From an uncultured Gammaproteobacteria bacterium (GTDB lineage Bacteria > Patescibacteriota > Microgenomatia > Levybacterales > GWA1-39-11), in NCBI GenBank assembly GCA_964452165.1, contig CAYVKP010000001.1, positions 426,375 to 490,374 on the forward strand: a stretch of DNA of 64,000 nt, in the 5' to 3' direction. Positions 3,773 through 30,996 of this stretch are shown piece after piece. Position numbers and translations under genes: made by a program. Position 1 is the first letter of the stretch. Every line of letters begins with the position of its first letter. Below the pieces are notes generated by a model. The model made no database searches. It saw nothing but the letters and a program-made list of their open reading frames with translations, and was not told the origin of the DNA.

Positions 3773-4348
3773 ATGTTTACAGGAATAATTACAAATCTTG
3801 GAGCGGTCATACAAAAAAAACAATCAAAGCTTACCATAAAGGCGGACAAAAGTTTGCTTAAAAAAATCGAAAATGGAACAAGCATTTCAGTAGATGGGAT
3901 CTGTTTGACTGCCGTAGAGATTAATGAAGAGTCTTTCGTAATAGACTTTATGCCGGAGACTCATGAACTGACGAATATAAAATATTTGGTTGACGGTGAT
4001 ATTGTTAATTTAGAGCTACCCGCAACTCCTGCCACTTTTTTGTCAGGACATATTCTTCAGGGGCACGTTGACGGGGTAGGAAGACTTGAGGAGTTAACAG
4101 AGGAAGGGAATAGTCGTATTTTAAAGTTTTCAATACCAAAGTCCTTGTCCAAATATATTGTTGAAAAGGGTTCAATCGGAGTGAATGGAATATCGCTGAC
4201 GGTCATTGATGTTGCCAACGAAATTTTTACAGTTGGTATTATCCCGTACACATGGGATAATACCATGTTGTCGGGACTCATCCGGGGTAGCGCAGTAAAT
4301 ATTGAGGTCGACGTTTTGGCAAAATATTTGGAAAAGCTTAACAAATGA
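3773..4348 (+). CDS. ribE: Riboflavin synthase alpha subunit
   Basis: The N-terminus 'MFTGIITNLG' is diagnostic. Two lumazine-binding repeats are present ('GTSISVDGICLTAVEI', 'GSIGVNGISLTVIDV'). Confidence 0.9.
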   Translation: MFTGIITNLGAVIQKKQSKLTIKADKSLLKKIENGTSISVDGICLTAVEINEESFVIDFMPETHELTNIKYLVDGDIVNLELPATPATFLSGHILQGHVDGVGRLEELTEEGNSRILKFSIPKSLSKYIVEKGSIGVNGISLTVIDVANEIFTVGIIPYTWDNTMLSGLIRGSAVNIEVDVLAKYLEKLNK

Positions 4349-4788
4349 AAAAGACGGAGGAAATTAAAATCGCAATAATTGGGAGTAATTTTCAAAGAGA
4401 AATTACTGATGCTCTTGAGGAGCATTGTATCGATACTCTCTTAGGGAAAGGCATCAGGAAAGAGCAGATACTTTCCGTTCGAGTTCCAGGTTCGCTTGAA
4501 ATACCGCTTGCAGCAAAAAAACTTGCCGAGAAAAATAAATTTGATGCTCTTATCGCTATTGGAGCAATTCACAAAGGTGAGACATATCACTTTGAGCAAG
4601 TTGCAGATCAATGTATTCGCGGCTGCATGGATGTTTCATGGCAGTATGGGATACCGGTGATTTATGAAGTTCTGGCAGTTTACAACATTGAAGATGCAAG
4701 AAAACGAGCAACAAGAGAAGAAGGAAATAGGGGACAAGAAGCAGCGCTGGCCGCATTATCAATGATAGATACAATAGCCAAGATTTAG
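4345..4788 (+). CDS. ribH: 6,7-dimethyl-8-ribityllumazine synthase
   Basis: 'IAIIGSNFQREITDAL...VPGSLEIPLAAKKLA...DALIAIGAIHKGETYHFE' is typical of the DMRL synthase family. It overlaps ribE by 4 nt (ATGA). Confidence 0.9.
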   Translation: MKKTEEIKIAIIGSNFQREITDALEEHCIDTLLGKGIRKEQILSVRVPGSLEIPLAAKKLAEKNKFDALIAIGAIHKGETYHFEQVADQCIRGCMDVSWQYGIPVIYEVLAVYNIEDARKRATREEGNRGQEAALAALSMIDTIAKI

Positions 4789-5153
4789 TCTTTAAAAAGA
4801 TCTTTTACTTCTTCTACATCTTTCTCCATTTGTTTAACTAGCTCTTTTTCCGTATCGAATTTTTTATTCCCACGAATTTTTTTGAACAGTTTAACTGTAA
4901 CTCTTTTGTCATAAATATCTTGATCGAAATCAAAAATATAAGTCTCGGACTTGTAGTCTTTCTCATCAAAGGTTTTTGCCGAGCCAATAAACGTAACTGC
5001 GTTGAAAATTGTTTGGTCAATTGTAATTTGTGAAGCGTAAATTCCCTCCGGAATTTTTTTGTGAAGCGGAACATTTGCGGTAGGGAAACCCAATTGTTTG
5101 CCTCGATTCTTTCCAGAAACAATTTTGCCCCGAAATGTTTGTAAAGATTTCAT
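4785..5153 (-). CDS. Monofunctional riboflavin kinase (RibF C-terminal-domain type / flavokinase)
   Basis: 'GKIVSGKNRGKQLGFPTANV' is the flavokinase signature (G-x-G...LGFPTAN). The protein is 122 aa with no FAD-synthetase domain. It is convergent with ribH and overlaps it by 4 nt. Confidence 0.8.
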   Translation of the reverse strand: MKSLQTFRGKIVSGKNRGKQLGFPTANVPLHKKIPEGIYASQITIDQTIFNAVTFIGSAKTFDEKDYKSETYIFDFDQDIYDKRVTVKLFKKIRGNKKFDTEKELVKQMEKDVEEVKDLFKD

Positions 5154-5324: not shown

Positions 5325-7727
5325 ATGATACACCTATCAGGTAAGAGAAACGAACAACTGATCCCGGTAATTCCAATAAGAGACGGAATTGTTTTCCCCC
5401 ACACAGAGTCAATTCTTACTTTTGGACGACCGAAAAGCCTAGCCGCTCTGGAATCTGCATTTGCAGGAGAAAGGGTTGTATGCTTTGTTCTTCAAAAAAA
5501 TCCCAAGCAGAACGATCCCGAGCCTTCGGATCTATATTCAATGGGTACAGTTTCCCACATTGAAAGAATGATCCGCACAGATGGTGAGGTTAATGCGCTG
5601 GTTCGTGGATTATCACGTGCCAAGATAGTTTCTTACGATGACAAAACCGGATATTTCCTTGCGCGCGTAGAAGAAATAGATGAGGAGAATGTTGATACCG
5701 CTGAAATTAAAGCCCTTTCAAACCACTTGATTGCTGAATTTAAAAAAGCGCTTTCTTTGGGCAAGCAAGCCGATTTTCTAGTCTTCATGAATATAATGTC
5801 TGAAGTTGCTCCTTCAGAGCTTGCTGATCAAATAGCATCAACCCTTGATATTAAGGGTTCTGAGCGCCAAGAGCTTCTTGAGACGATTGATGTAAAGAAA
5901 AGACTTGAGAAAGTTTCGGAGTTTTTGTCACGTGAGGTAAAAGTTTTGGAGCTTGAGAGAAAAATTTCAAGCAAAACTCAAGAGCAATTTGAGAAAAGCG
6001 CCAAGGAAGCAATACTTCGCGAGAGAATCAAGACAATAGAAAAAGAGCTCGGAGATTCTGAGGAGGGCAGTGAAGTAAAAGAGTTGCTCGATAAAATAAA
6101 AGCTGCCGGAATGCCAAAAGAAGTTGAAGAGAAGGCAAGAAAAGAGTTGAAGAAGCTTTCACAAACTACTCCGTATAATCCCGAGGCTGGCTATATCCGT
6201 AACTACCTCGAGACTTTAGTTTCGCTTCCTTGGAGCAAGAAGTCAAAGAGCAACGTAGACCTTCCGGACGCTGAAAAAATTTTAGATGAAGATCACTATG
6301 GTCTTAAAAAAGCAAAAGAGAGAATAGTTGAATACTTGGCAGTTCACAAGCTGGCTGGAAAAATGAGAGGTCCAATTCTATGTTTTGCCGGACCCCCCGG
6401 AGTTGGAAAAACATCAATAGGTAAATCAATAGCGCGAGCACTGGGCAGAAAATTCGTCAAAGTCTCTCTTGGAGGAATTCGCGATGAAGCAGAAATCCGC
6501 GGACACAGAAGAACTTATGTTGGAGCGCTTCCCGGACGAATAATCCAGGGAATCAAAGATGCAGGTACAAAAAATCCGGTATTTATGCTTGATGAAATTG
6601 ATAAAGTTGGCGCAGATTACCGTGGTGATCCATCAGCAGCCCTTCTTGAGGCTTTGGATCCAGAGCAGAATGATCAATTCTCAGATCACTACCTTGATGT
6701 TCCTTTCGATTTGTCGGATGTAATGTTTATAACGACAGCAAATATGCTGGATACAATTCCGCCGGCGCTTCGTGATCGACTCGAAATAATCAACTTCGCC
6801 GGATACACGGAAGAAGAGAAGTTCAATATTGCAAGCCGCTTCTTGATTAAAAAACAAATGGAAGCACATGGTCTAAAAGATAGTAATGTTGAGATTAAAG
6901 ATGACGCTGTCCACTTTATTATTGAGCGATATACAAGAGAAGCAGGAGTGAGATCTCTTGAGCGAGAATTTGCCGGAATTTTCAGAAAGATAGCAAAGTT
7001 GGTTGCAGAGAAAAAATCCGAAAAAACCATAGTTGATAAAAAGATGGTTGAAAAATTCCTGGGTCCAACCAAATTTACCTCATCGCTCGCCGAGAAAAAA
7101 GACGAGGTAGGTATGGCAACAGGACTTGCTTGGACTCCTGTTGGTGGGGAGATTTTGTTTATCGAAGTTGCTCTGATGCCTGGAAAAGGACAACTTATTC
7201 TGACGGGGCAATTGGGTGATGTCATGAAAGAATCGGCCCAAGCTGCCATGTCTTATATTCGTTCAAAAGCATCTCGCCTTGGATTGAGAGAAAATTTCTA
7301 CAGCAAAATTGATGTTCATATTCATGTGCCAGAGGGTGCAACGCCAAAAGACGGACCATCAGCCGGTGGAGCCATGACGACAGCTTTGGTTTCGGCGTTT
7401 ACAAAAATTCCCGTGAGCCACTTAGTTGGAATGACAGGTGAAGTGACGCTTCGCGGACGAATTCTTGAGATAGGTGGTCTTAAAGAGAAATTAATTGCTG
7501 CCCACAGGGCAGGTCTTAAGACAATAATTTTACCAAAAGACAATAGAAAAGATTTGGAAGATGTACCAAAACAGGTTCTTAAAGATTTGAGATTTGTTTT
7601 TGTATCTCATATGGATGAAGTATTGAAGGTTGCATTGACAAAAAGACTTGCAGGACTTGAAGATATCAGAGGAGAGCAGGCGCCATCAACTAATATTACT
7701 TCCCCAACCCCAATCGCCGCCGACTAA
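5325..7727 (+). CDS. lon: ATP-dependent Lon protease (LonA type)
   Basis: It has a LON N-terminal domain, an AAA+ Walker A 'GPPGVGKTS', Walker B 'FMLDEIDK', and a proteolytic domain 'DGPSAGGAMTTALVSAF' with the Ser–Lys dyad context. Confidence 0.95.
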   Translation: MIHLSGKRNEQLIPVIPIRDGIVFPHTESILTFGRPKSLAALESAFAGERVVCFVLQKNPKQNDPEPSDLYSMGTVSHIERMIRTDGEVNALVRGLSRAKIVSYDDKTGYFLARVEEIDEENVDTAEIKALSNHLIAEFKKALSLGKQADFLVFMNIMSEVAPSELADQIASTLDIKGSERQELLETIDVKKRLEKVSEFLSREVKVLELERKISSKTQEQFEKSAKEAILRERIKTIEKELGDSEEGSEVKELLDKIKAAGMPKEVEEKARKELKKLSQTTPYNPEAGYIRNYLETLVSLPWSKKSKSNVDLPDAEKILDEDHYGLKKAKERIVEYLAVHKLAGKMRGPILCFAGPPGVGKTSIGKSIARALGRKFVKVSLGGIRDEAEIRGHRRTYVGALPGRIIQGIKDAGTKNPVFMLDEIDKVGADYRGDPSAALLEALDPEQNDQFSDHYLDVPFDLSDVMFITTANMLDTIPPALRDRLEIINFAGYTEEEKFNIASRFLIKKQMEAHGLKDSNVEIKDDAVHFIIERYTREAGVRSLEREFAGIFRKIAKLVAEKKSEKTIVDKKMVEKFLGPTKFTSSLAEKKDEVGMATGLAWTPVGGEILFIEVALMPGKGQLILTGQLGDVMKESAQAAMSYIRSKASRLGLRENFYSKIDVHIHVPEGATPKDGPSAGGAMTTALVSAFTKIPVSHLVGMTGEVTLRGRILEIGGLKEKLIAAHRAGLKTIILPKDNRKDLEDVPKQVLKDLRFVFVSHMDEVLKVALTKRLAGLEDIRGEQAPSTNITSPTPIAAD

Positions 7728-7770
7728 GAAATTTATCCAGGTCTCAAATGCTTTAGTATCGCGATAACCG

Positions 7771-8256
7771 GTGGTACAATATGTCACTATGAAGACTAAA
7801 ACACAAAAAGCAAAAACAATTGTCTTGCAAAACAGGTATCTTACGATTGCCTCCACGGATAAAAATGGTAAGCCCTGGATTACTCCCGTTTTCTTTGCGT
7901 ATGACGATGATCTTAATCTCTATTGGGTATCAGGTAAAAATGCACGACACTCTGAAAATGTTCGCGCCAATCCCCAAGTTGCCATTGTGATTTTTGATTC
8001 AACGGAAGGTGAAGGAGAGGGAGATGCGATATATATAGAAGCAGAAACTCAAGAGTTAAAATCTAATAAGGAAATAGAAAAGGGAATGAGATACTATGAC
8101 GCTCGTGCATCTAAGGCAAAGTTTAAAGTAAAAAAACCTGAAAATGTAAAAGGAGAATCCGAGTGGAGATTTTATAAAGCAACTCCTATGGTGGCTTACA
8201 AGTCTGGAAAGCCAAAGACTGTTAATGGTCAATATATTGATACCAGGAGAAAATAA
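7771..8256 (+). CDS. Pyridoxamine 5'-phosphate oxidase-like (PNPOx-like) FMN-binding split-barrel protein
   Basis: 'LTIASTDKNGKPWITPVFFAYDDDLNLYWVS...RHSENVRANPQVAIVIFD' is the typical PNPOx-like fold signature. The SD 'GGTGGT' lies 6 nt upstream. Confidence 0.6.
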   Translation: MVQYVTMKTKTQKAKTIVLQNRYLTIASTDKNGKPWITPVFFAYDDDLNLYWVSGKNARHSENVRANPQVAIVIFDSTEGEGEGDAIYIEAETQELKSNKEIEKGMRYYDARASKAKFKVKKPENVKGESEWRFYKATPMVAYKSGKPKTVNGQYIDTRRK

Positions 8257-8323
8257 GTCTTTCCGAGCTCAAAGATTTGTTAGAGTTTATTAAAAAATAA
8301 ATTGTTGATTAAGCAAATAACCA

Positions 8324-10804
8324 TTAGGAATTAGAATCCATTTCAAAATCCTGCTCAAGCTTTTCCTCAAGCGTACGCATTATTTTTTTAAGGTCTATAC
8401 CTCTTTCAAGTGTTGGTTTCCAAAGGTCTCCTACCTTTTCAATTCGGGTCAAAATGTTTTTAATTGTAAAGTCACCAGGTGACAATTTCCTGTTAACCTC
8501 ACTCCATTTGAGTGGTGTGGAAACCGTTGCACCAGGACGTGGCCTGATGGAATATGGAGCGGCGAGAGTTTGCCCTATCCTATTTTGTAAAAAATCTAAA
8601 TAAACCTTGCGTTTTCTTTTGGAGGGACTTCTAGCAACACTTGTAAAATCAGGATTTTTACGATTTACAATATTAACGATAATTTCTACAAATTTCCGGC
8701 CTTGTTCGTGAGTGTATTTACCTCCCGTCGGAATATAAATATGAATACCCGTTGCACCTGAGGTCTTTGGATAGCTTTCTATCTCCAGTTTCTCCAAAAC
8801 ACCACGCACTTGGTTGGCAGCATCGACAACCTTATCAAAACCTATTTCTTCAGGATCTAAATCCACAATTACGTAGTCTGGGTTCTCAAGACTTCCAATT
8901 TTGCTGTTCCAGGGATTTATGTCAATACAGCCTAGATTGACCATATAAAGAAGCGCTTCCAAATTATTGCATACAAGGTAATTTATATCCTTTCCCTCGC
9001 TGTCAGATGGTATTTTTACAGAGTCTACAAAGCTTGGCAATTTAAAATTAATGTCTTTTTGAAAAAAACTTTCACCGTTAATTCCATTCGGATAACGCTT
9101 TAAAGATTCCGGCCTGTTTTTAAGATAGGGTAAAATTAGGCCTGAGATTTTTTGATAATACTGTCTGAGATCTCCTTTCGTGTAGCCTTCACCGGGCCAG
9201 AAGACCTTATCAGGGTTAGAAAATTTTAAAGCCTCGGGTTTTGTCGCAGCTTTTACTTCTTTCGGTTTTTCAATGGTTATTTCTTGTGGACTTTTGTCAG
9301 CCCTCAAACCTTTGAAAATAGGTTGCCTCATGTGTCCTCCTTCAGTCCACTGTGAGAATTCAACCTCACAAATAAGCACTGGCTCTACCCAGGTCGCAGG
9401 CATATTGGTAACGGGCACGCGTTTAAAAGGAGATCTATGGGTAACGATTTTTTGTAGTCGTGAGTCCATGCTTTTAAGACTTACCTCATCAAATCCGCTA
9501 CCCGTATGTCCCACATAAGTCAGTTCCCCATTCTTATAGACACCCAAGATTAATGCACCAAAATATTTTCTTCCCCCACGGGGGCGTGTAAAACCGCAAA
9601 TAATTACCTCTTGTCTTGCATGTGTTTTTATTTTCAACCAATTATTTCCCCGAATACCAGCCTGATAAGTGCTGTTCGATTTCTTCGCGATAATCCCTTC
9701 AAGTCCTTCCTTTGCTGCAGCGGCAAAGAATTTTATTCCGTTGCGCGTTATGTGCGATCCTACCTGAATATTGCTGTTCTCAGGAATAAGATTTGCCAAG
9801 ATTTCCTTTCGTTTTACGAGTGGTACGTCCATGAGGTTTTTGTCGTTCAAAAAGAGAATATCAAATGCATAATAAATTAAACTACCCCTGTTAACTTTTC
9901 TGTAATTTTGCAAATTTTGAAAATTGGGCTTTCCATTATCGTCAACTACAACAATTTCCCCGTCGAGCACAGCATTTAACTTAAGTGCGTTGAGCGATTC
10001 CACGAGAGCTGGGTAGTGTGTATTAAAAAGAGTTTCATTCCGGGAATATAATCTAACTTTTTTTTGGGAGCAATCTGCGATTGCTCGATATCCATCCCAT
10101 TTTATTTCAAATATAAACTCCTCATCGTCAAAAGGTTTATCAATAAGCGTAGCAAGCATTGGCTTTATAAACTCTGGGATTTTATCTTTCGGTAGAGATC
10201 TTAAAAATTCCTCGTCAATGCTTCCCTTGCGGGATCCGCTTCCCACCTCATCTACTTTTACTCCCGATACAACAGATCTATCCTGCAAGGTGACATCCTC
10301 ACTGGTTGCGTATTCGTCCTTTTCTTTTATAAGGAGCCACGAATTTTCTTCATCTGCGTTTTTCAATTTTACGAGCGCCCATAACCCTTTTAGCTTTTCC
10401 CCAAACAATCTAAATTTAATATTTCCGGTATGTAATTCTTTCAAGATTTCTTTTTCGGAATTTTCAGGATTGTTCGCCGATTCATAAGTTCCAGCATCCC
10501 AGATAATTACATTCCCTGCTCCATAATTTCCCTCGGGTATTATTCCTTCAAAATTACGATAATCAAAAGGGTGATCTTCAACCATCATGGCAAGACGCTT
10601 GACCGATGTATCCGGTGAAGGGCCTTTTGGAACCGCCCAGCTCTTTAAAACGCCGTCTGCTTCAAGCCTGAAGTCGTAGTGGAGATGGGAAGCGTGGTGC
10701 TTTTGAATTACAAACCGCAGAGGACCCTGATGGTTTTTTTGCATACCCGCGGGTTCCGGTGTTTTATCAAATTTGCGTTTTTCATTATAAAGTTTTAACG
10801 TCAT
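8324..10804 (-). CDS. ligD: Multidomain NHEJ DNA ligase LigD, ordered phosphoesterase – ATP-dependent ligase – polymerase/primase (Pseudomonas-type)
   Basis: The N-terminus 'KRKFDKTPEP...FVIQKHHASHLHYDFRLE...KSWAVPKGPS' is the LigD 3'-phosphoesterase domain. The central 'EIKWDGYRAI' is ligase motif I (KxDG). The C-terminal 'VFWPGEGYTKGDL..YY..IS..ILPYLKNRP.SL.RYPNG' is the LigD Pol domain. Confidence 0.9.
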   Translation of the reverse strand: MTLKLYNEKRKFDKTPEPAGMQKNHQGPLRFVIQKHHASHLHYDFRLEADGVLKSWAVPKGPSPDTSVKRLAMMVEDHPFDYRNFEGIIPEGNYGAGNVIIWDAGTYESANNPENSEKEILKELHTGNIKFRLFGEKLKGLWALVKLKNADEENSWLLIKEKDEYATSEDVTLQDRSVVSGVKVDEVGSGSRKGSIDEEFLRSLPKDKIPEFIKPMLATLIDKPFDDEEFIFEIKWDGYRAIADCSQKKVRLYSRNETLFNTHYPALVESLNALKLNAVLDGEIVVVDDNGKPNFQNLQNYRKVNRGSLIYYAFDILFLNDKNLMDVPLVKRKEILANLIPENSNIQVGSHITRNGIKFFAAAAKEGLEGIIAKKSNSTYQAGIRGNNWLKIKTHARQEVIICGFTRPRGGRKYFGALILGVYKNGELTYVGHTGSGFDEVSLKSMDSRLQKIVTHRSPFKRVPVTNMPATWVEPVLICEVEFSQWTEGGHMRQPIFKGLRADKSPQEITIEKPKEVKAATKPEALKFSNPDKVFWPGEGYTKGDLRQYYQKISGLILPYLKNRPESLKRYPNGINGESFFQKDINFKLPSFVDSVKIPSDSEGKDINYLVCNNLEALLYMVNLGCIDINPWNSKIGSLENPDYVIVDLDPEEIGFDKVVDAANQVRGVLEKLEIESYPKTSGATGIHIYIPTGGKYTHEQGRKFVEIIVNIVNRKNPDFTSVARSPSKRKRKVYLDFLQNRIGQTLAAPYSIRPRPGATVSTPLKWSEVNRKLSPGDFTIKNILTRIEKVGDLWKPTLERGIDLKKIMRTLEEKLEQDFEMDSNS

Positions 10805-11574
10805 TATGCATTTTCTTCGGCAAGACTTTGTTTTAAAAGTGACATTAGATCACGAACATGAGTAGGGGGTTTCGTAGTCTTTGGAGTTGGAAGTTTTTCA
10901 CCCTTTGCTTTTTTTGCGATCATCTTCTCAAGCTTCTCACGATAAGTGTCTTCATAGTCCTCGGGGTTAAAGGGTTTTGTTAACTTATCAATCAATGAAG
11001 TTGCCATATCTATTTCGGTTTTTGATACACGTTCATCTTTTGGAACGGAAAGATCTTTGTGACTTCTTATTTCCTCTCGGAATCTAATTTTATTAAGAAT
11101 TATGATGTTGGAGTGAGGTTTTAAAACTGCTAAAGACTCCCTAGTTCTTAAGATAAAGCTTGCAACCCCAACCGTCTTTGATTCTTTCAGAGCTTCATAC
11201 AAAAGATAATATGCTTTTTGAGCGTTTTTGGCAGGTTCCACATAATAAGGCGTATCAAAATATTCCGTATCAATCTCGTCAGCTTTTGCAAAACTCAGGA
11301 TTTGTATAGAGTCGTGTTTCTCGGGACTTGCGTGTTTTAAATCATCATCTGTTATGACAACATAATCTCCATCCCTAAATTCGAAACCTCTAACCAAGTC
11401 TTTATATTCAATTTCCTTTTCTTCCTTCTCACAGATTTTGGCATATCGGACTCGCGATAAATCTGTTTTATGTAGATAATCAAAATCCAGATTTTTATCT
11501 TCCGTACCCGGGTACAATCTGATGGGAATATTTACTAAACCAAAGTTGATAGAACCTGACCATATCGCTCTCAT
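10804..11574 (-). CDS. ku: Ku DNA end-binding protein (NHEJ). Start placed at the internal 'MRAIWSG'; the ORF track's 11622 start adds 16 hydrophobic residues and is less likely
   Basis: 'MRAIWSGSINFGLVNIPIRLY' is the canonical bacterial Ku N-terminus. Its stop codon overlaps the ligD start (TAATG), indicating translational coupling. Confidence 0.88.
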   Translation of the reverse strand: MRAIWSGSINFGLVNIPIRLYPGTEDKNLDFDYLHKTDLSRVRYAKICEKEEKEIEYKDLVRGFEFRDGDYVVITDDDLKHASPEKHDSIQILSFAKADEIDTEYFDTPYYVEPAKNAQKAYYLLYEALKESKTVGVASFILRTRESLAVLKPHSNIIILNKIRFREEIRSHKDLSVPKDERVSKTEIDMATSLIDKLTKPFNPEDYEDTYREKLEKMIAKKAKGEKLPTPKTTKPPTHVRDLMSLLKQSLAEENA

Positions 11575-11677
11575 AATAAGCAAAGTATAGGTCAAAAAAA
11601 TGGCCAATACAACAATTTTCACGCAACTATTACGAATTGTTTACGCGTTTATTATTCTCTAAAACTAAGGTTAATAT

Positions 11678-11893
11678 GTGGTAAAAACTAAGGTTACGGA
11701 TAATACGCAAAAGGACCCAAAAGATTGGAAAACGGGTGAGGAACGCGCTACGGGAGCCCAGATTTCTTATTTGACCACCATGGCTCAAGAAGCGGGCGTT
11801 AAGATTGATACGAAGGGTTTAACAAAAGCTGCAGCCGCAGAAAAAATAGAAGAACTTCAGAAGGTTACAGGCCGCGGACAATCAGCTAATTGA
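11678..11893 (+). CDS. DUF3072-family small protein (non-ATG start; exact start uncertain)
   Basis: 'DPKDWKTGEERATGAQISYLTTMAQEAG...TKAAAAEKIEELQ' matches the DUF3072 consensus (DP.DW.TGDEPMTGAQ.SYL.TL..EAGE). It is divergent from ku. Confidence 0.5.
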   Translation: MVKTKVTDNTQKDPKDWKTGEERATGAQISYLTTMAQEAGVKIDTKGLTKAAAAEKIEELQKVTGRGQSAN

Positions 11894-12615
11894 TGAAAAT
11901 CCGAATTGGAACCTCGGGCTTCAATTATAAGGAGTGGAAGGGAAGCTTTTATCCTGATAATTTACCGCAAAAAAAGTGGTTGGAGTTTTATGCGTCCAAA
12001 TTTGATTCTGTTGAAATAAATAATAGTTTTTACATTACAGTGAAACCTGCAACTTATGAAAACTGGTATAAGATAACGCCAGCCCATTTTATCTTTGTAA
12101 TAAAAGGACATAGATTTATAACCCAACTGAAAAAACTTGCAGGCGTTGAGGATTCGGTGCGATTGTTTTTTGAAAACGCTAAGCCTTTAGGTGAAAAATT
12201 GAAAGTGGTTCTCTGGCAATTTCCAAGGAATTTTTCGTTCAATGAAAAAAGCTTTGAGCGATTGAAAACTTTTCTGGATTTAGTCCCGCAGAATATTAAA
12301 CACGCTTTTGAATTTAGAGAAAAAGGTTGGTTTAGAGATGAAGTTTGCCAACTTTTAGAAGCCAATAATTCAACGCTTGTAATTGCTCAGTCTTCAAAAT
12401 TTCCGGAGATAGAAATGCCGGGAGGCAAACTTGTATATATAAGGCTTCATGGGCCGAAGGGATTGTATTCGTCGGGATACACAGACAATCAGCTTGAAAA
12501 CTGGGCAAAAAAAATTCGGCTGTATTCAAAAAAAGAAGAAGTTTATGCCTTTTTTAATAATGATAATGGCGGCTACGCAACAGAGAATGCGATGAGATTA
12601 AAATCTCTTATGTGA
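11893..12615 (+). CDS. DUF72 (YecE-like) family protein
   Basis: 'IRIGTSGFNYKEWKGSFYP...LEFYASKFDSVEINNSFY' is the hallmark DUF72 N-terminus. ATG is at 11893; TTG at 11890 is possible. Confidence 0.8.
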   Translation: MKIRIGTSGFNYKEWKGSFYPDNLPQKKWLEFYASKFDSVEINNSFYITVKPATYENWYKITPAHFIFVIKGHRFITQLKKLAGVEDSVRLFFENAKPLGEKLKVVLWQFPRNFSFNEKSFERLKTFLDLVPQNIKHAFEFREKGWFRDEVCQLLEANNSTLVIAQSSKFPEIEMPGGKLVYIRLHGPKGLYSSGYTDNQLENWAKKIRLYSKKEEVYAFFNNDNGGYATENAMRLKSLM

Positions 12616-12628
12616 CCCAAATGTTTTT

Positions 12629-12946
12629 CTACTTCATAAGTTCAAATGCCTCTTTAAGCCATTTGAGTAGATCACTGTCTATGTCCTCTGGTTTTTCGAT
12701 TTTTAATTCATTATGAAATCTGCTCTTTGAGACTTGTTCTTGTTTTGCTATTCTCAAGCTATTAATGGGAGATGCCGAGACGATGTTGAGAATAAAATAT
12801 TCTTTTCTTGGATGTACTCCCGCAAATGCAGCTCTATTTTTGAAATGTATTGAAGTTTTCTTTTCTTCCACAGTGATCTCTCCAAATTTCTTAAGTTCGG
12901 TCAGCAGTTGTTGATAGAGGCTCTTTACATAAGGAGTTAATTCCAT
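12629..12946 (-). CDS. Hypothetical protein (105 aa), DUF5655-like (low certainty)
   Basis: This is an ORF with plausible codon usage, convergent with the DUF72 gene. The family assignment is from memory only. Confidence 0.4.
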   Translation of the reverse strand: MELTPYVKSLYQQLLTELKKFGEITVEEKKTSIHFKNRAAFAGVHPRKEYFILNIVSASPINSLRIAKQEQVSKSRFHNELKIEKPEDIDSDLLKWLKEAFELMK

Positions 12947-13027
12947 GCTGTAATTTTAACAAATTATCGTTCTTTGTGTGACTTACCGGCTACCATCAGG
13001 AATTAGGTCGCTGTTATAATAGTTATC

Positions 13028-13678
13028 ATGTATAAAGATAAAATATCCATCATTACATTAATTCTTGTTAATCTTATTCCGCTTTACGGAGTTTTATTTG
13101 ATAATTGGCAGATATTTACAGTTGTATTTTCGTACTGGTTACAGAGCCTTGTCGTCGGAATGTACACAATATTAAAAATGATGAAAGACCAAGGAATTTC
13201 AGAAAGCCAGAAAGTTACTAAAGATGATAACCAGCTCCTAATGAAGCAATACAGTAGGCTCTCAAATATTATTCTTATTCCATTTTTTTGTTTACATTAC
13301 GGAGGTTTTTTACTTGGTCATCTAGTTTTCATTATCGGTCTTTTTCCGGTAAAAAATTTTCATATTACCCAAATGATTATTCCTTCTATTGCTTTAGTAA
13401 TTAATCACGGCGTTTCATACTGGAAAAATTTCATAGGTCAAAAAGAATATCTTTACATTGCTCCACTAGAGCAAATGGGTACTCCCTACATAAGGGTTTT
13501 TGTTATGCATTTAACTGTTCTTGGTGGGGCATTTATGATTGTGTTGTTGCATTTGCCCATTTTTGCTCTGGTTCTGCTGGTCCTGCTGAAGACATACGGA
13601 GATTATTGGTCGCATATCGTAGAACATAAATTGATTGAACAGAAACGACTACCTACTTACCAAAAACAATCTTTGTGA
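13028..13678 (+). CDS. Hypothetical polytopic membrane protein (216 aa)
   Basis: It has 5–6 predicted hydrophobic helices. No recognisable motif was found. Confidence 0.45.
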   Translation: MYKDKISIITLILVNLIPLYGVLFDNWQIFTVVFSYWLQSLVVGMYTILKMMKDQGISESQKVTKDDNQLLMKQYSRLSNIILIPFFCLHYGGFLLGHLVFIIGLFPVKNFHITQMIIPSIALVINHGVSYWKNFIGQKEYLYIAPLEQMGTPYIRVFVMHLTVLGGAFMIVLLHLPIFALVLLVLLKTYGDYWSHIVEHKLIEQKRLPTYQKQSL

Positions 13679-13814
13679 CCCAGATATTTCTCCTTGTTTA
13701 ACCACCATCAGGAGTTGGCCAGTTTAAATGAATTTTCACATCAGCATCTCCATTAAGAGGTGTGGCCTGAGATGTTCAGGCTCTTTAGATTTGGAGCTTT
13801 CAGTATTCGTATTT

Positions 13815-14285
13815 TCAGTTGATGAAAGGAACTTTTTGGCAAACGGAGTTAATACATTTTGCATTATATCTTTTGCCATTATTGTTGGAACAGATACATG
13901 AAGTTAGCACACTGTTGTGTCGTGGTGGGTTACAACTTTGACTTGCAGATTTGATCCAATCTGTATTAACTGCTTTTGATTCCTCTGAAGAAGATTCACA
14001 ACAGCCTTCGCAAACACTGTATGGATAAGCCAATTCGCAATCTTTATCCATGGAGCACTTATTAAAAAAGGAAGGTTTCTCGCTATGTATGTTGCTTACA
14101 GCAAGATAGCTAATAAAACGGAAAGATAATGGGCCAACGACAAGAATAGTTATAGCCATCAATACAAGAATAATAGACAATGGGATACCTCTAATTTTTC
14201 TACCCGAAAGTTTGTGAACAAGGTTTTCAAATATTTCTTGGTCAGGCTGAGGCAGGTTGGGATGATTTTGATTGTTTTCTTCCAC
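13815..14285 (-). CDS. Hypothetical single-pass membrane protein with a Cys-rich (12 Cys) extracytoplasmic C-terminal domain; GTG start
   Basis: One TM segment ('IPLSIILVLMAITILVVGPL') is followed by 'CELAYPYSVCEGCC...CICSNNNGKRYNAKCINSVC'. No family was recognised. Confidence 0.35.
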   Translation of the reverse strand: MEENNQNHPNLPQPDQEIFENLVHKLSGRKIRGIPLSIILVLMAITILVVGPLSFRFISYLAVSNIHSEKPSFFNKCSMDKDCELAYPYSVCEGCCESSSEESKAVNTDWIKSASQSCNPPRHNSVLTSCICSNNNGKRYNAKCINSVCQKVPFIN

Positions 14286-14431
14286 CTCTCGAGTATTTCA
14301 CGAAGCAAGCTATGTGTCAAATTGCTGTGGCCCAAATGTTTTTGCATTGGAACCAAATATGTAGTTCTTTGGAGCAGTGGAGAAACATACTGCAATCGTT
14401 GTATACTCTTAATGTGAACGAAAATGGTGAG

Positions 14432-15088
14432 ATGCCAGTTAAAGAAGCTGGACAACAAAGTTTTAAAGACGAGCTTGTTGAAAAAATCGGATTTGTTCCC
14501 ACAACAACCCCAGAAGATATAAGACTTGTAAGAGGTACAAATAATGATGAGTCTGAAGACGTGGTACAACATGGTTGGGGAGTAAGTCGTGGAACTGTTT
14601 TCCAAGGAAACGCAGAATACCTTTCAACAGACGCAGATGAGGCAGCTGAAAAAATTGCAAGTTTACATAGAGGGGCAAGAACAGGACTAATCTTTGCGAT
14701 ACCGAATATTTACGCTGAATGGGGAGCCTTAAAAAATGCCAGAAAGATTGATGCTGAGATAAGACCTGAGCTTCCATTTGCTGAACCTGATCCTACCGGT
14801 TCTCGCGTAAGGATAGGAGAAGCAACTGCTGATTATGTTGTTCCACCTGAATATGTCGAGGGATATTATGATAAAGATGAGAAGGCATGGCATCCAAATC
14901 CTTTATTTTGGACCAACGTGGTAAAGAAAAAAGCTATAGATGAAGGGTGGACAGAGGAGCAATTGCAAGCAAAAGTTAGTGAGATGCGAGGGGAAAGAAA
15001 ACAAAAAGGACTCGCGAGATTACGTGAGGAGAATAATAAAACAAATGACCTTAACCGCGAGGCACTGAAGAGTCTTCCTAAGACTTAG
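14432..15088 (+). CDS. Hypothetical soluble protein (219 aa). Start placed at 'MPVKEAG', which has a GGTGAG Shine-Dalgarno; the ORF-track start at 14312 was rejected
   Basis: This is a long ORF ending 17 nt from the 3' end of the convergently oriented tRNA-Glu. No family was recognised. Confidence 0.45.
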   Translation: MPVKEAGQQSFKDELVEKIGFVPTTTPEDIRLVRGTNNDESEDVVQHGWGVSRGTVFQGNAEYLSTDADEAAEKIASLHRGARTGLIFAIPNIYAEWGALKNARKIDAEIRPELPFAEPDPTGSRVRIGEATADYVVPPEYVEGYYDKDEKAWHPNPLFWTNVVKKKAIDEGWTEEQLQAKVSEMRGERKQKGLARLREENNKTNDLNREALKSLPKT

Positions 15089-15105
15089 AAATTTAGCTCC
15101 GTGTG

Positions 15106-15178
15106 TGACCCCAGGCGAAGTCGAATCGCCGTTACCAGGATGAGAACCTGGTGTCCTAGGCCACTAGACGATGGGGCC
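15106..15178 (-). tRNA. tRNA-Glu (anticodon CUC), 73 nt, CCA not encoded
   Basis: The reverse complement folds as a cloverleaf: acceptor GGCCCCA/TGGGGTC, D-arm GTC-TAGTGGCCTAG-GAC, anticodon stem CCAGG/CCTGG with loop TTCTCAT, T-arm GGCGA-TTCGACT-TCGCC. It closely resembles canonical bacterial tRNA-Glu. Confidence 0.8.
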
Positions 15179-15248
15179 AAGTGGTAAAGTATTTTACCTT
15201 AAATTGAGCCTTGAACTCAAGCTCGGCTTGATTTGTTATAATGTTTTT

Positions 15249-17208: not shown

Positions 17209-18765
17209 ATGCTTAAAAATAGATACTTCTCCTTGCTTCTGGGGGCACTTGGAATAGTTGCATTATATTTCTTCTTAAGAATTTTTCACATTCTCAGCTT
17301 GCCTCTTTTTACTGATGAAGCAATTTATATAAGATGGGCACAAATAGCCAAACAAGACGCAGCCTGGCGATTTATTTCGCTGACAGACGGGAAACAGCCC
17401 ATGTTCGTATGGATTGCGATGGTAGCTTTAAAATTTGTCAAAGAGCCTATTTTGGCAGGGCGCTTGGTCTCGGTTTTTGCCGGATTTGCTACAACGATCG
17501 GATTATTTTTCTTGGGGAATGAAGTATTCAAGGAAAAAGATAAGAAGGGAGAATTTAAAATATTTTCGTTCACGAAAGCAACTGTTGCGATAGGACTTCT
17601 CTCAGGTTTTATTTACACAATTTATCCATTCGGCCTAGTTTATGACCGTATGGCTCTCTACGATAGTCTTGCTGCGACTTTTGCGGTTTGGATTTTGTAT
17701 CTTCTTCTTGTGACTGTGCGGACTTTAAGGCTTGACGTCGCTCTCATTACCGGAATCGTTGCCGGTGGAGGGGGTCTGACTAAGTCAAATGATTTCCTGT
17801 CAGTTTATTCCATTCCGTTTTTATTGCTGATTTTTGATTGGAAGAAAAAAGTTGTATCTTCGCGTCTTGCCAGATTTGCTGGGTTGTCTCTGCTCATAGT
17901 AATTTTTACCTACTCAATATATTCAATTCTCAGGCTTTCTCCGTTCTTCCACATAATAGGTGACAAGAACGCTCTTTTTGTCTATCCGGTTCGTGAGTGG
18001 ATAGAACATCCTACCCAATATTTATCAAGTAATCTCTCGGCGCTGGTAAATTGGTTAATAATATACTTTAGTATTCCGGGAATAGTCCTGGTTCTTGCCT
18101 CTTTTTTTGTTAACAAAAAGAACTTTCTTGAAAAATCTGTCCTTGTTTTGTGGTTCTTATTTCCATTTGCAGTGCTTGCGTTTTTTGGCAAATTAATTTA
18201 TCCACGATTTATACTCTTGATGACCCTTCCTTTAATTCCTCTAGTTTCATACAGTATTTATAATTTGCTCGATAATTATAAGAATTTTATTTTTAGAGTA
18301 GCCGTTATAATATTTGCTTTTGCATTTTATGTCTATGCCGACTTTTTCATTATTACCAATTTCTCCGCGGCTCCCATTCCAAGAGCCGATACCGGTCAGT
18401 TCATAAACAACTGGTCTGCGGGAAATGGTGTTAATCAATCCGTTTCGTTTTTCAAAAAACAGGCGGTTAGTCAAAAAATATATATAGCGACAGAAGGAAC
18501 GTTTGGGCTTATGCCATTTGGTCTTGAAATGTATCTTGTTGATAATCCTAATGTTAAAATCCAGGCTTTCTGGCCGATTCAAAATACTCCTCCAGAAGAA
18601 GTGGTAAGTAGCGCAAAAATTATGCCGACGTATGCCATTTTTTATCAGCCTTGTCCTTCGTGTCTTGGTACACAAATTCCAAACGGCTGGAAGGCTCGGG
18701 AAATAGCAAGTTACAAACAAGGGACAAGCGATTATTACTACAGAATTTATCAAATTCTTCCATGA
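17209..18765 (+). CDS. ArnT/PMT-like (GT39/GT83) GT-C membrane glycosyltransferase
   Basis: The N-terminal first-loop 'LPLFTDEAIYIRWAQ' (DE motif), multi-TM topology and C-terminal soluble domain are typical of 4-amino-arabinose/mannosyl transferases. Confidence 0.7.
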   Translation: MLKNRYFSLLLGALGIVALYFFLRIFHILSLPLFTDEAIYIRWAQIAKQDAAWRFISLTDGKQPMFVWIAMVALKFVKEPILAGRLVSVFAGFATTIGLFFLGNEVFKEKDKKGEFKIFSFTKATVAIGLLSGFIYTIYPFGLVYDRMALYDSLAATFAVWILYLLLVTVRTLRLDVALITGIVAGGGGLTKSNDFLSVYSIPFLLLIFDWKKKVVSSRLARFAGLSLLIVIFTYSIYSILRLSPFFHIIGDKNALFVYPVREWIEHPTQYLSSNLSALVNWLIIYFSIPGIVLVLASFFVNKKNFLEKSVLVLWFLFPFAVLAFFGKLIYPRFILLMTLPLIPLVSYSIYNLLDNYKNFIFRVAVIIFAFAFYVYADFFIITNFSAAPIPRADTGQFINNWSAGNGVNQSVSFFKKQAVSQKIYIATEGTFGLMPFGLEMYLVDNPNVKIQAFWPIQNTPPEEVVSSAKIMPTYAIFYQPCPSCLGTQIPNGWKAREIASYKQGTSDYYYRIYQILP

Positions 18766-30161: not shown

Positions 30162-30162
30162 A

Positions 30163-30996
30163 ATGGGATTTATCAAAAAATTTGGCGAAATATCCAAGGG
30201 AGACACAAAACAGGTAGGTGGTAAAGGCGCCTCTTTGGGAGAAATGGTAAAAGCGGGTATTCAAGTTCCCTCCGGTTTTGTTATAACTGCTCAAGCTCAC
30301 CAAAAATTTGTCAACGACTCTCTACCGGTTAATGTGAGAAAAGGAATTTTAAAAGCCTTTGATGAACTTGATGCCCAACAAGTTGCGGTTAGATCGTCAG
30401 CCATTGCAGAGGATTCATCTCAGGCTTCGTGGGCCGGACAATTAGAAACCTATCTTAATGTTTCAAGAGATGATTTAATAAATAAAGTTAGGGATTGTTG
30501 GAGTTCTGTTAAATCAGAAAGAGCTTTATCTTATGCGGGTGGACAGGACTTGGCAGAAGATGATTTATTCGTAGCTGTTGTCGTACAAAAAATGATTGAT
30601 AGTAAAACTTCGGGAGTAATGTTTACTGTCAATCCGATTACAAAAGACACAAATGAAGTTATGATCGAAGCAGGCTTTGGGTTGGGTGAGCTATTAGTTC
30701 AAGGATTAATTACGCCTGATAACTTTATCATTAATAAGAATACTTTCGAAATCAAAAGTAAAGATGTTCAAGCTCAAGATACTATGTTGGTATTTCAAGA
30801 GGGAGAAAATAAAGAAATCCCCGTCCCATCCGATAAGAGAAATGAACAAAAAGTTTCAGATGAAAACATCAGGGAATTAGTTAATATGGCTATAAAAATA
30901 GAAACACATTATGGAAAACCTCAGGACATAGAGTGGGCAATTGACGATCAAAATCGAATCTGGATTTTACAGTCAAGACCAATAACGACACTTTGA
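30163..30996 (+). CDS. Pyruvate phosphate dikinase / PEP synthase N-terminal ATP-grasp (PPDK_N) domain protein, stand-alone
   Basis: 'VGGKGASLGEMVKAGIQVPSGFVITAQA' and the C-terminal 'QDIEWAIDDQNRIWILQSRPIT' are PPDK_N signatures. It begins 1 nt after the upstream stop. Confidence 0.8.
   Translation: MGFIKKFGEISKGDTKQVGGKGASLGEMVKAGIQVPSGFVITAQAHQKFVNDSLPVNVRKGILKAFDELDAQQVAVRSSAIAEDSSQASWAGQLETYLNVSRDDLINKVRDCWSSVKSERALSYAGGQDLAEDDLFVAVVVQKMIDSKTSGVMFTVNPITKDTNEVMIEAGFGLGELLVQGLITPDNFIINKNTFEIKSKDVQAQDTMLVFQEGENKEIPVPSDKRNEQKVSDENIRELVNMAIKIETHYGKPQDIEWAIDDQNRIWILQSRPITTL

Follow-up and report, generated by a model that had tools for sequence, protein, structure and literature searches.

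The Ku–LigD systems of Pseudomonas aeruginosa, Mycobacterium tuberculosis and various Bacteroidota are the closest described counterparts of the NHEJ locus considered here, which lies in a 64,000-nt stretch of DNA (hereafter the window). The P. aeruginosa system (Ku, PA2150; LigD, PA2138) shares with it the PE-Lig-Pol domain order, the catalytic residues and a single Ku of ~260 aa. The PE domain of the window LigD aligns to the P. aeruginosa structures 2lj6 and 3n9b at 1e-49 to 4e-47 and its Pol domain to 2fao at 7e-36, although overall sequence identity appears only moderate. The two systems differ in that ku and ligD of the window overlap in one operon. Their hosts differ as well, P. aeruginosa having 6.3 Mb and 66% GC whereas the CPR host of the window presumably has ~1 Mb and 38% GC.

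In M. tuberculosis, Ku (Rv0937c) and LigD (Rv0938) are likewise encoded by adjacent genes and the same three activities are found. For the ligase domain of the window LigD, the alignment with 1vs0 (2e-49) retains the catalytic lysine, and the mycobacterial Ku chains solved by cryo-EM (8v53 and 9i91) align to the window Ku at 4e-48. However, the domain order of the mycobacterial LigD is Pol-PE-Lig, and the mycobacterial ku and ligD genes are divergent whereas those of the window are co-directional and overlapping. The C-terminus of the M. tuberculosis Ku also differs from that of the window in being longer, extended and Lys-rich (PMC9638933), and a role of M. tuberculosis NHEJ in non-replicating or dormant cells is proposed (PMC12784962).

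Among Bacteroidota, Cytophaga, Chitinophagaceae, Pedobacter and Mucilaginibacter encode PE-Lig-Pol LigD proteins sharing 44-50% identity with that of the window, and in many of these loci Ku is directly upstream, with an overlapping or near-abutting junction. Unlike the window, these loci belong to hosts with large genomes and lack DUF3072. Their neighbourhoods are general-stress islands that include PAS kinases, response regulators, ferritin-like proteins of the YciE/F type, SDRs and a likely topoisomerase IB, as named from a reading of the sequences.

The Ku–LigD operon

The original prediction of a complete Ku and a complete PE-Lig-Pol LigD coupled by a TAATG overlap holds, since coordinates (Table 1), models and overlap all agree.

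Table 1. Features in and around the ku–ligD operon (positions in the window).
Feature	Positions	Strand	Description
ribE	3773-4348		Riboflavin gene
ribH	4345-4788		Riboflavin gene
Riboflavin kinase	4785-5153		Riboflavin gene
lon	5325..7727	+	Left anchor of the hotspot and taxonomic marker; Pfam Lon_C, LON_substr_bdg, AAA
Variable cargo block	7728..15104	.	7.4 kb, Lon to tRNA-Glu; nine proteins
PNPOx-like gene	7771-8256		In cargo block
ligD	8324..10804	-	Three-domain DNA ligase D, 826 aa; order PE-Lig-Pol, as in P. aeruginosa
LigD primase-polymerase (AEP) domain	8417..9226	-	aa 527-796; TIGR02778, 236 bits (cut-off 215)
LigD ATP-dependent ligase domain	9275..10162	-	aa 215-510; TIGR02779, 305 bits (cut-off 228)
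LigD 3'-phosphoesterase (PE) domain	10313..10798	-	aa 3-164; TIGR02777, 219 bits (cut-off 144)
TAATG stop/start overlap, Ku/LigD	10802..10806	-	Ku TAA 10806-10804, LigD ATG 10804-10802; read from the sequence
ku	10804..11574	-	Bacterial Ku, predicted homodimer subunit, 256 aa; PF02735 aa 11-190 (7e-47)
Divergent intergenic region, ku/DUF3072	11575..11677	.	103 nt
DUF3072 small protein	11678..11893	+	71 aa; GTG start, SD-like AAGG 7 nt upstream; PF11272, 9e-23
DUF72 (YecE/TM1631 family) TIM-barrel protein	11893..12615	+	240 aa; PF01904, 4e-68
DUF5655 gene	12629-12946		In cargo block
DUF6498 gene	13028-13678		In cargo block
Two ORFs	13815-14285, 14312-15088		In cargo block; no Pfam match
tRNA-Glu(CTC)	15105..15178	-	Conserved right anchor; ARAGORN and Rfam; 3' end faces the cargo block

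The phosphoesterase, ligase and polymerase of LigD, as well as Ku, are all recognized above cut-offs by Pfam and NCBIfam models. Pfam detects LigD_N (aa 34-146, 9e-43), DNA_ligase_A_M (215-393, 2e-38), DNA_ligase_A_C (412-504, 1e-27) and LigD_Prim-Pol (PF21686, 542-795, 5.5e-87), and the NCBIfam model TIGR02776 scores 558 bits for a cut-off of 373. The solved LigD domains 5dmu, 2lj6, 1vs0, 3n9b, 2fao and 2iru give full-length alignments to the matching domains. In the same way, TIGR02772 (Ku_bact) covers aa 2-251 of Ku with 304.6 bits (cut-off 150), and the solved bacterial Ku proteins 9vnq (2e-56), 8v53 and 9i91 align to it from residue 1. The GTG at 11622 given by the ORF lister lies upstream of the true ku start, as independent gene calls and the alignments to solved Ku both begin at MRAIW (ATG).

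Catalytic residues of LigD were assigned from motif positions and from HMMER alignments to 1vs0, 5dmu and 2lj6. In the PE domain, H36, H42, D44, R46, H78 and Y82 are conserved in the alignment to the P. aeruginosa domain (2lj6/3n9b), on P. aeruginosa residue numbers that we take to be the corresponding ones, and lie in the motifs KHHASHLHYDFR and EDHPFDY. The motif I lysine of the ligase, K235 (EIKWDGYR), aligns with K481, the catalytic residue of the M. tuberculosis enzyme (1vs0) that is M in the mutant structures 6nhz and 6nhx. In the Pol domain, the metal ligands D648/D650 (VDLDP) and D737 are in place, as is the ribonucleotide-selecting histidine, H688, within SGATGIH. The catalytic motifs of PE, Lig and Pol are all intact. 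With PE, LIG and POL in one polypeptide and Ku in the same genome, the pair is a conventional NHEJ system in the sense of Sharda 2020.

The TAATG coupling is a common arrangement for Ku–LigD. Of the 32 other loci in which ku precedes ligD in the same orientation, 9 (L007, L009 and L060 among them) have a Ku stop and a LigD start that overlap or are at most 4 nt apart, and the CPR locus L098 also has an overlapping or near-abutting junction. More generally, in 60% of conventional NHEJ genomes ku and ligD are co-oriented and no more than 10 kb apart (Sharda et al.).

From what is known of these families, the Ku homodimer would be threaded by the ends of a DSB and would then recruit LigD. The AEP polymerase domain would fill gaps or extend ends, preferably with ribonucleotides, while the PE domain would remove 3'-phosphates and trim ribonucleotide tracts until a single 3'-monoribonucleotide is left, the break being finally sealed by the ATP-dependent ligase domain. 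This mechanism accords with that reviewed in PMC8656161. Judging from its sequence, the operon very probably (at roughly 85%) encodes a functional bacterial NHEJ system of the conventional two-component kind in a Levybacteria-like CPR bacterium.

Spacer and genes beyond Ku

Beyond Ku, DUF3072 and DUF72 genes had been expected in divergent orientation across a spacer of about 100 nt, with possible co-regulation with Ku. Both genes are indeed there, and the spacer is 103 nt long. The co-regulation fares differently for each of them, since comparison between loci gives support for DUF72 but not for DUF3072, which adjoins Ku only in the window and in one sibling species (L086-L088). The DUF3072 HMM has no match in any of the other LigD loci. 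The AF2 model of this small protein consists of two helices (pLDDT 72.6), and a fold search with it returned no significant match.

The DUF72 protein, whose ATG overlaps the TGA stop of DUF3072 (TGATG), is covered by PF01904 over model positions 1-216 of 217 (230 bits) and matches TM1631 (PDB 1VPQ) at 8.7e-23. Of 83 loci, 10 have a DUF72 gene next to Ku/LigD. This gene adjoins Ku divergently in three of the four genomes of the CPR clade, two of which also have a Fpg/Nei glycosylase close by. Other arrangements are the order DUF72-Ku-LigD in Cytophaga, a DUF72 start overlapping the LigD stop in a Sphingobacteriaceae MAG and a DUF72 gene downstream of LigD in Mucilaginibacter, adjacency being also seen in L039 and L027. 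The neighbourship of DUF72, which spans unrelated lineages and varying gene orders, recurs in several Bacteroidota lineages whereas that of DUF3072 does not.

What is described for the little-studied DUF72 family, putatively involved in repair, consists only of a structural relation to UV-damage endonuclease and of neighbourhood association (PMC11791011). Its neighbourhood suggests that this UVDE/EndoIV-like TIM barrel could be an auxiliary nuclease that processes damage or ends. That DUF72 would be a hitherto overlooked accessory component of bacterial NHEJ, cleaning ends or incising clustered damage with Ku–LigD, is a tentative proposal that we hold to be rather doubtful. Among the leads that the locus provides, the link with DUF72 is the most promising.

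The spacer contains, on the Ku strand, a -10-like box (TATACT, 11589-11584) located 9 nt 5' of the Ku ATG, and four loci (window, L086, L097 and L098) share TATAC[T/C] at 9-10 nt 5' of the ku start. No Shine-Dalgarno sequence precedes ku, and a generic promoter scan of the 103 nt found no promoter. An inverted repeat, AACAATT-N17-AATTGTT (11611-11641), is also present in the spacer and is not conserved in the siblings. A single ku-ligD mRNA would start in this spacer. Because of the position of the TATAC box and the lack of a Shine-Dalgarno sequence, the transcript would probably be leaderless or have a very short leader, as suggested by a box of 5-6 nt in four loci. Termination of Ku would be coupled to LigD translation through the TAATG.

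Host, descent and the Lon–tRNA-Glu hotspot

The assignment of the host to the CPR draws on the similarity of Lon, on the labels of MAGs and on gene content; the window contains neither rRNA nor ribosomal-protein genes. The best 120 Lon matches listed are 75-92% identical, with 80-92% identity to Candidatus Levybacteria/Patescibacteria (CPR) MAGs, and the named ones among them are all CPR (six Levybacteria/Levyibacteriota, one Patescibacteria and one Parcubacteria). The nearest relatives of LigD, Ku and DUF3072 also belong to Patescibacteria MAGs. The remainder of the window consists of an envelope glycosylation cluster of the CPR type, whose GT2/MptA_B/YfhO/PTPS genes are syntenic with those of the sibling L095 (57-69% identity).

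It should be stressed that the Ku–LigD system itself is ordinary and that it is the host that is unexpected. NHEJ tracks large genomes (median size of 5.4 Mb where NHEJ is present and of 2.9 Mb where it is absent) and is linked to large genomes and slow growth in a comparison of complete genomes that does not include the CPR (PMC7719229), while CPR MAGs average ~0.87 Mb (PMC11608272). A Levybacteria-like host (Microgenomates, CPR/Patescibacteria) goes against this published trend. The operon is not confined to this host, as Ku–LigD is present in other CPR MAGs, which bear the labels Saccharibacteria, Parcubacteria and Microgenomates. The reduced genome put forward in the original prediction is backed by the taxonomy of these CPR relatives but not by composition: the coding density of the window (at least 93%) and its GC content (37.9%) are unremarkable taken alone, and about 90-95% coding with 38% GC would fit many Bacteroidota.

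Phylogenetic analyses place the pair in a CPR-specific Ku/LigD clade. Each protein groups with those of three other CPR genomes at 100% bootstrap and the two trees agree on the branching ((window, L086), SMAG_U6198), L098, with 100% bootstrap each. The operon is kept in these orthologues at 62-80% identity. The SMAG_U6198 orthologues (Ku, 68%; LigD, 66%) diverge from those of the window as much as other non-core genes do at that Lon distance. Deep nodes have less than 50% bootstrap in both trees, so that neither a single gain nor a donor is fixed by them. A single gain at or before the base of the CPR subclade, followed by relocation or loss in descendants, would be compatible with these data.

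The adjacency of the operon to Lon and riboflavin genes, previously regarded as notable, turns out to have no functional meaning, as the Lon side is the edge of a variable hotspot. In L093-L096, the same tRNA-Glu follows Lon at a distance of 0-8 kb. In L095, the block is absent, with 0 nt between the Lon stop and the tRNA, and in L093, L094 and L096, unrelated genes fill the interval. In L086, the tRNA-Glu is near the Ku–LigD block, which lies on its opposite side. As the interval is empty in one sibling and filled by unrelated genes in three others, the Ku–LigD operon is accessory cargo of a hypervariable hotspot. The patchy distribution anticipated for the system is therefore borne out by the siblings, absence being scored within +-10 kb of Lon.

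Like tRNA-associated genomic islands, the hotspot has a conserved housekeeping gene at one border and a tRNA 3' end at the other, with variable strain-specific cargo in between. The 7.4-kb block could therefore be viewed as a recently acquired, tRNA-Glu-targeting integrative island, of which NHEJ would be passenger cargo and not an adapted host function. The junction of the block with the tRNA-Glu(CTC) 3' end, the cargo differing sibling by sibling and the mixed phyla of the nearest non-CPR LigD/Ku relatives (~50% identity) all point that way. However, unlike such islands, the block encodes neither an integrase nor a recombinase or transposase (Pfam, all nine proteins) and shows no att direct repeat, no k-mer of at least 11 nt from 15085-15200 recurring in 7000-15100 on either strand. 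Nor is there any compositional anomaly: GC is 0.380 in the block and 0.379 in the window, and the z-scores of GC3 range from -1.53 to +0.81. Furthermore, the divergence of the SMAG_U6198 orthologues fits vertical descent inside the CPR clade, and viral contigs yielded no close relatives. Recent acquisition of the block as an island is consequently unlikely.

A functional host repair system in a region of high gene turnover could also serve mainly in the capture or circularisation of incoming linear DNA, or act on breaks inflicted by phages or defence systems, in a naturally competent episymbiont. Published work indicates that stress-inducible NHEJ aids the acquisition of heterologous DNA in Sinorhizobium (PMC6379672) and that CPR Saccharibacteria are naturally competent (PMC10633639). 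The sequence, however, offers nothing that separates DNA capture from ordinary repair, and the neighbours are of the repair/stress type (DUF72 and PNPOx-like in the window; Fpg/Nei-type H2TH glycosylase, AlkZ-like and GIY-YIG genes in siblings) rather than of competence or defence, which makes this main role quite improbable.

Lastly, that a Ku–LigD block from a non-CPR organism was chimerically joined to CPR sequence during assembly or binning is hardly conceivable: LigD relatives in reference genomes are mostly Bacteroidota and the 'Saccharibacteria' locus L007 has a suspicious 63.6% GC, but the Lon-PNPOx-LigD-Ku-DUF3072-DUF72-DUF5655-DUF6498 junctions were assembled independently from three sequencing runs and are present on a 650-kb (650,109 bp) NCBI contig, composition is uniform throughout the block, the closest non-CPR LigD is a mere 52% identical, and three other genomes carry orthologous operons in CPR-type contexts, including that of L098, whose position between FtsA/FtsZ and IleRS/L21/L27 rules out a binning artefact.

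NHEJ in CPR bacteria

A functional NHEJ system serving its CPR host would have a plausible benefit. A cell that is tiny, grows slowly, is probably often dormant and has a single chromosome would usually lack a sister copy for RecA-dependent repair, so that template-independent joining would pay despite genome streamlining. In a secondary reading, NHEJ would be retained by soil CPR because it adapts them to desiccation or dormancy, and genome size would then be a poor predictor of NHEJ.

An intact Ku–LigD, retained and diversified within a clade of ultra-small CPR, means that genome streamlining is compatible with NHEJ, and it fits the lack of a template (one chromosome copy, dormancy, desiccation) as the real driver over genome size. 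Active NHEJ would also influence how attempts at genetic manipulation, as well as CRISPR self-targeting, turn out in CPR bacteria. Besides, the DUF72 linkage provides a concrete and cheap hypothesis for a widespread family to which no function is assigned, and the Lon–tRNA-Glu hotspot gives a handle on gene flux in the CPR.

The Ku–LigD operon

The genes ku and ligD are encoded head to tail at the places first proposed for them (see the table), and the claimed overlap can be read directly as TAATG at 10806-10802, where one base is common to the TAA stop of ku and the ATG start of ligD. The start of ku is the ATG at 11574 (MRAIW...); independent gene calls and alignment to solved Ku structures favour it over the GTG at 11622 given by a mechanical ORF list.

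The original prediction of a Ku and a complete three-domain LigD is borne out by domain models. Pfam searches detect in LigD, in the order phosphoesterase (PE), ligase, polymerase, the domains LigD_N (aa 34-146, 9e-43), DNA_ligase_A_M (aa 215-393, 2e-38), DNA_ligase_A_C (aa 412-504, 1e-27) and LigD_Prim-Pol (aa 542-795, 6e-87), and in Ku the Ku core (aa 11-190, 7e-47). Furthermore, the NCBIfam equivalog and domain models for LigD (TIGR02776, TIGR02777, TIGR02778 and TIGR02779) and for Ku (Ku_bact, TIGR02772) all score above their curated cut-offs. Each LigD domain aligns end to end with a solved structure: the polymerase with the NHEJ polymerase 5dmu (1e-53), the PE with those of P. aeruginosa (2lj6, 1e-49; 3n9b, 4e-47) and the ligase with that of M. 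tuberculosis (1vs0, 2e-49). All the catalytic positions are present, namely K235 of ligase motif I (EIKWDGYR, aligned with K481 of M. tuberculosis), D648 and D650 (VDLDP), D737 and H688 (SGATGIH) of the polymerase, and H36, H42, D44 and R46 in KHHASHLHYDFR with H78 and Y82 in EDHPFDY of the PE. The roles of the ligase lysine and of the polymerase histidine that selects rNTPs have been reviewed (PMC8656161).

In this family, LigD is brought to the break by Ku dimers bound there. Its polymerase domain has a preference for ribonucleotides in the nucleotides that it adds, its PE turns 3'-phosphates into hydroxyls and shortens tracts of ribonucleotides, and its ligase, which prefers a 3'-monoribonucleotide, seals the break (PMC8656161). 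With all the needed parts intact, the Ku–LigD of the window would act by the same route.

Coordinates of the features discussed (L086 and L097 are loci of related CPR genomes, L027 and L078 other LigD loci)
Feature	Sequence	Position	Strand	Remarks
ligD	window	8324-10804	-	826 aa
ku	window	10804-11574	-	256 aa
TATAC[T/C] box	window	11584-11589	ku strand	
DUF3072 gene	window	11678-11893	+	GTG start; TGATG overlap with DUF72 gene
DUF72 gene	window	11893-12615	+	TGATG overlap with DUF3072 gene
Lon–tRNA block	window	7728-15104		PNPOx-like, LigD, Ku, DUF3072, DUF72, DUF5655, DUF6498, two ORFs without Pfam match
GT-C-like membrane ORF	window	17209	+	518 aa
Four YfhO paralogues	window	18651, 32730, 37131, 41043	+	
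Five PTPS-related membrane proteins	window	21151, 22701, 31103, 43435, 56631	+	Further candidate at 54842
Four PMT/PMT_2 GT-C enzymes	window	45087, 46816, 48480, 50129	+	
Whole glycosylation cluster	window	15171-63758	+	Besides the above, about 10 GT2, several GT4, two flippases, epimerase
H2TH glycosylase	L086	11789-12553		
H2TH glycosylase	L097	3574-4341		
H2TH glycosylase	L027	2226-2963		
H2TH glycosylase	L078	9803-10531		

Host lineage and relatives of the operon

The suggestion of a reduced genome was right in substance but had been drawn from weak grounds. A GC content of 37.9% and a coding density of at least 93% (the apparent non-coding gaps at 17574-18650 and 58272-59204 are both coding) are not diagnostic, and it is the taxonomic evidence that counts. 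Among 185,579 species-representative genomes, the best LigD match (66% identity) belongs to SMAG_U6198, a 'Patescibacteria group bacterium' MAG whose LigD contig (L001) also bears a Lon 90% identical to that of the window. The best 120 hits of a Lon search share 75-92% identity, and all the named ones among them are CPR: six Candidatus Levybacteria/Levyibacteriota (80-85%), one Patescibacteria and one Parcubacteria. In the same way, the glycosyltransferase cluster of the window is syntenic with that of the sibling contig L095 (57-69% protein identity). Lon similarity, MAG labels and gene content thus place the host, as far as sequence can tell, in a reduced-genome CPR lineage. CPR MAGs average 0.87+-0.23 Mb (PMC11608272).

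Orthologous Ku–LigD pairs occur in four CPR genomes: that of the window, L086/L087 (GCA_035549315.1 and GCA_964585445.1; Ku 80% and LigD 71% identical to the window), SMAG_U6198, whose Ku lies at the end of contig 33 (L097) and whose LigD lies at the start of contig 46 (68% and 66%), and the JGI contig L098 (66% and 62%). Neighbour-joining trees (100 bootstraps) of the two proteins are congruent, each giving ((window, L086), SMAG_U6198), L098 with 100% bootstrap. In L098, the overlapping Ku->LigD pair lies between MraY/FtsW/MurG/FtsA/FtsZ and IleRS/L21/L27/ParB; this placement among cell-division and ribosomal-protein genes excludes a binning artefact and shows that Ku–LigD moves as a two-gene unit. 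A Ku search added some 13 clusters at 64-72% identity, of which those that bear a name are Patescibacteria; beyond these, similarity falls to about 50% and phyla are mixed, including Parcubacteria and Microgenomates MAGs.

The phylogeny, proposed as a means of assessing horizontal origin, delimits a CPR clade at 100% but points to no donor: every node above this clade has less than 50% bootstrap, so that neither the donor nor the number of gains across CPR is fixed by the trees. Saccharibacteria-labelled LigDs, of which L003 and L009 pair with 99% support, may or may not be sister to the CPR clade, and a Patescibacteria-labelled LigD (L024) groups with Cytophagales (69-72% support). Another locus labelled Candidatus Saccharibacteria, L007 (CAYZCS010000001.1), has a GC content of 63.6%, unusually high for Saccharibacteria, and a LigD whose grouping with Gemmataceae is weak; here the MAG label or binning may be wrong.

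The coupling of ku and ligD is typical rather than special, since a stop/start overlap or a gap of at most 4 nt is found in 9 of the 32 other loci with Ku upstream of LigD on the same strand. The four CPR loci (window, L086, L097 and L098) share a TATAC[T/C] box, placed 9-10 nt before the start of ku, and no Shine-Dalgarno precedes ku. This conserved short motif, together with the missing Shine-Dalgarno, suggests that the ku-ligD mRNA of the CPR clade may be leaderless or near-leaderless. Scanned for generic sigma-70 promoters and terminators, 7700-13100 gave 18 promoter-like matches, against 12.4+-3.4 expected by chance, and none in the divergent spacer upstream of ku. An inverted repeat of this spacer, AACAATT-N17-AATTGTT, was rejected as a candidate operator, since neither L086 nor L097 conserves it in the corresponding spacer.

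The interval between lon and tRNA-Glu

In the window, 7.4 kb (7728-15104) separate Lon from the 3' end of tRNA-Glu(CTC). Four sibling contigs (L093 to L096) were chosen via their Lon proteins, 92, 89, 86 and 81% identical to that of the window. The tRNA lies 0-8 kb downstream of Lon in all of them. Up to 10 kb from Lon, they contain neither Ku nor LigD, nor any remnant detectable by tblastn, in agreement with the patchy distribution that had been anticipated. In L095, the Lon stop directly abuts the tRNA (0 nt), past which lie GT2, MptA_B, PMT, YfhO and PTPS-related genes orthologous to those of the window from 15171 onward. The three others hold 3.5-8 kb of unrelated genes in this interval. 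In SMAG_U6198, an MFS transporter, a MarR regulator and a hydrolase lie between LigD and Lon.

Judged by gene content and order, the Ku–LigD locus is accessory cargo in a hypervariable hotspot of Levybacteria-like genomes. The simplest reading would be that this CPR subclade acquired the locus long ago and that the locus was later moved and lost, in an interval prone to recombination. A recent insertion of the block as an island is unlikely: the block has no detected integrase or other mobility gene, no att-like repeat of at least 11 nt and no compositional deviation, and IMG/VR viral contigs, searched at close-relative sensitivity, gave no Ku or LigD relatives. Composition is itself uninformative as a sign of horizontal transfer, the block matching its host in GC (0.380 vs 0.379 for the window) and GC3 (z-scores -1.53 to +0.81).

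Lon and the riboflavin genes said to lie near the operon are indeed there (lon, ribE, ribH and riboflavin kinase). At 3773-5153, ribE and ribH overlap and the riboflavin kinase, a stand-alone protein of 122 aa lacking an FAD-synthetase domain, converges on both. Not every CPR bacterium has even a partial set of genes for flavin biosynthesis. Two PNPOx-like FMN-binding proteins are encoded in or near the hotspot of the window, L093 and L097.

Beyond the tRNA, about 48 kb are occupied by envelope-glycosylation genes, tightly packed or overlapping on one strand, a large investment if the genome is of about 1 Mb. Inside this cluster, 28839-30996 encodes two proteins with 1 nt between their genes, first one with a PEP-utilising mobile domain (440 aa) and then one with a PPDK_N ATP-binding domain (277 aa); the pair resembles a PEP synthase/PPDK-like enzyme that has been split or rearranged. 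At the other end of the window, the match of the ORF at 107-979 to the alpha-amylase catalytic domain is confined to the C-terminal part (model 235-439 of 446); the ORF may be a fragment, or its true start may precede the listed one, the window edge being at base 1.

DUF72, DUF3072 and the place of the system among known NHEJ

As had been described, genes for a DUF3072 and a DUF72 protein lie beyond ku and diverge from it, across a spacer of 103 nt. DUF72 is also divergent from Ku in L086, in the order DUF3072-SDR-DUF72-H2TH glycosylase, and in SMAG_U6198, in the order SDR-DUF72, beyond which come an H2TH glycosylase and a PNPOx-like gene. All-against-all ORF clustering found DUF72 in 10 of 83 LigD loci, in several arrangements. 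Across unrelated lineages, it directly adjoins Ku or LigD in L011, L013, L014, L027, L039, L048, L049, L080, L086 and L097. For example, a single strand carries DUF72->Ku->LigD in three Cytophaga loci, L039 has a LigD stop that overlaps the start of DUF72, DUF72 is downstream of LigD in Mucilaginibacter, and in L027 it adjoins Ku and an H2TH gene. With about one DUF72 gene per genome, chance would place it beside Ku or LigD, on a rough estimate, in well under one locus. The DUF72 family consists of TIM barrels with a relationship to UV-damage endonuclease, and its members are enriched in the neighbourhood of PolB2 damage-response operons (PMC11791011). The DUF72 protein of the window matches TM1631 (1VPQ) at 9e-23. 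No paper joining DUF72 and NHEJ was found in the literature searched.

In two genomes of CPR and two MAGs of Bacteroidota, an H2TH (Fpg/Nei-type) glycosylase gene clusters with DUF72 and Ku–LigD. Within 8 kb, L086 also has an AlkZ-like gene, a GIY-YIG gene and a HAD hydrolase whose match to PNK3P is only faint. As a set, these genes resemble a small DNA-repair island.

DUF3072 adjoins Ku only in the window organism and the L086 lineage; an HMM search of the LigD loci found it in no other, including L097, L098 and all the non-CPR loci. In three other genomes, its neighbours are unrelated and include no Ku or LigD. Its link with Ku thus looks lineage-specific. AF2 models it as a hairpin of two helices connected through an extended linker (pLDDT 72.6), for which Foldseek found no PDB match with E <1. 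A role of DUF3072 as a SAP/HeH-like DNA-binding partner of Ku would be conceivable but gains no support from these results. No paper in the literature searched mentions this family.

In the survey of Sharda et al., 22% of about 6,000 complete genomes have NHEJ, Ku and LigD are at most 10 kb apart in 75% of conventional systems, and the median genome is 5.4 Mb with NHEJ vs 2.9 Mb without (PMC7719229). The system of the window is conventional in the sense of these authors and its machinery is not new. Its host is the unusual part, as it belongs to a CPR lineage outside their data set and stands at the other extreme of the trend in genome size. Public annotation already names Ku proteins in Parcubacteria, Microgenomates and Patescibacteria MAGs; the literature searched yielded no paper on NHEJ, Ku or LigD in CPR, Patescibacteria or Saccharibacteria. 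The rationale of NHEJ for slow growth in the absence of a template still fits a CPR host. Two leads deserve to be pursued, the linkage of DUF72 with NHEJ and the way in which soil CPR bacteria have kept NHEJ.
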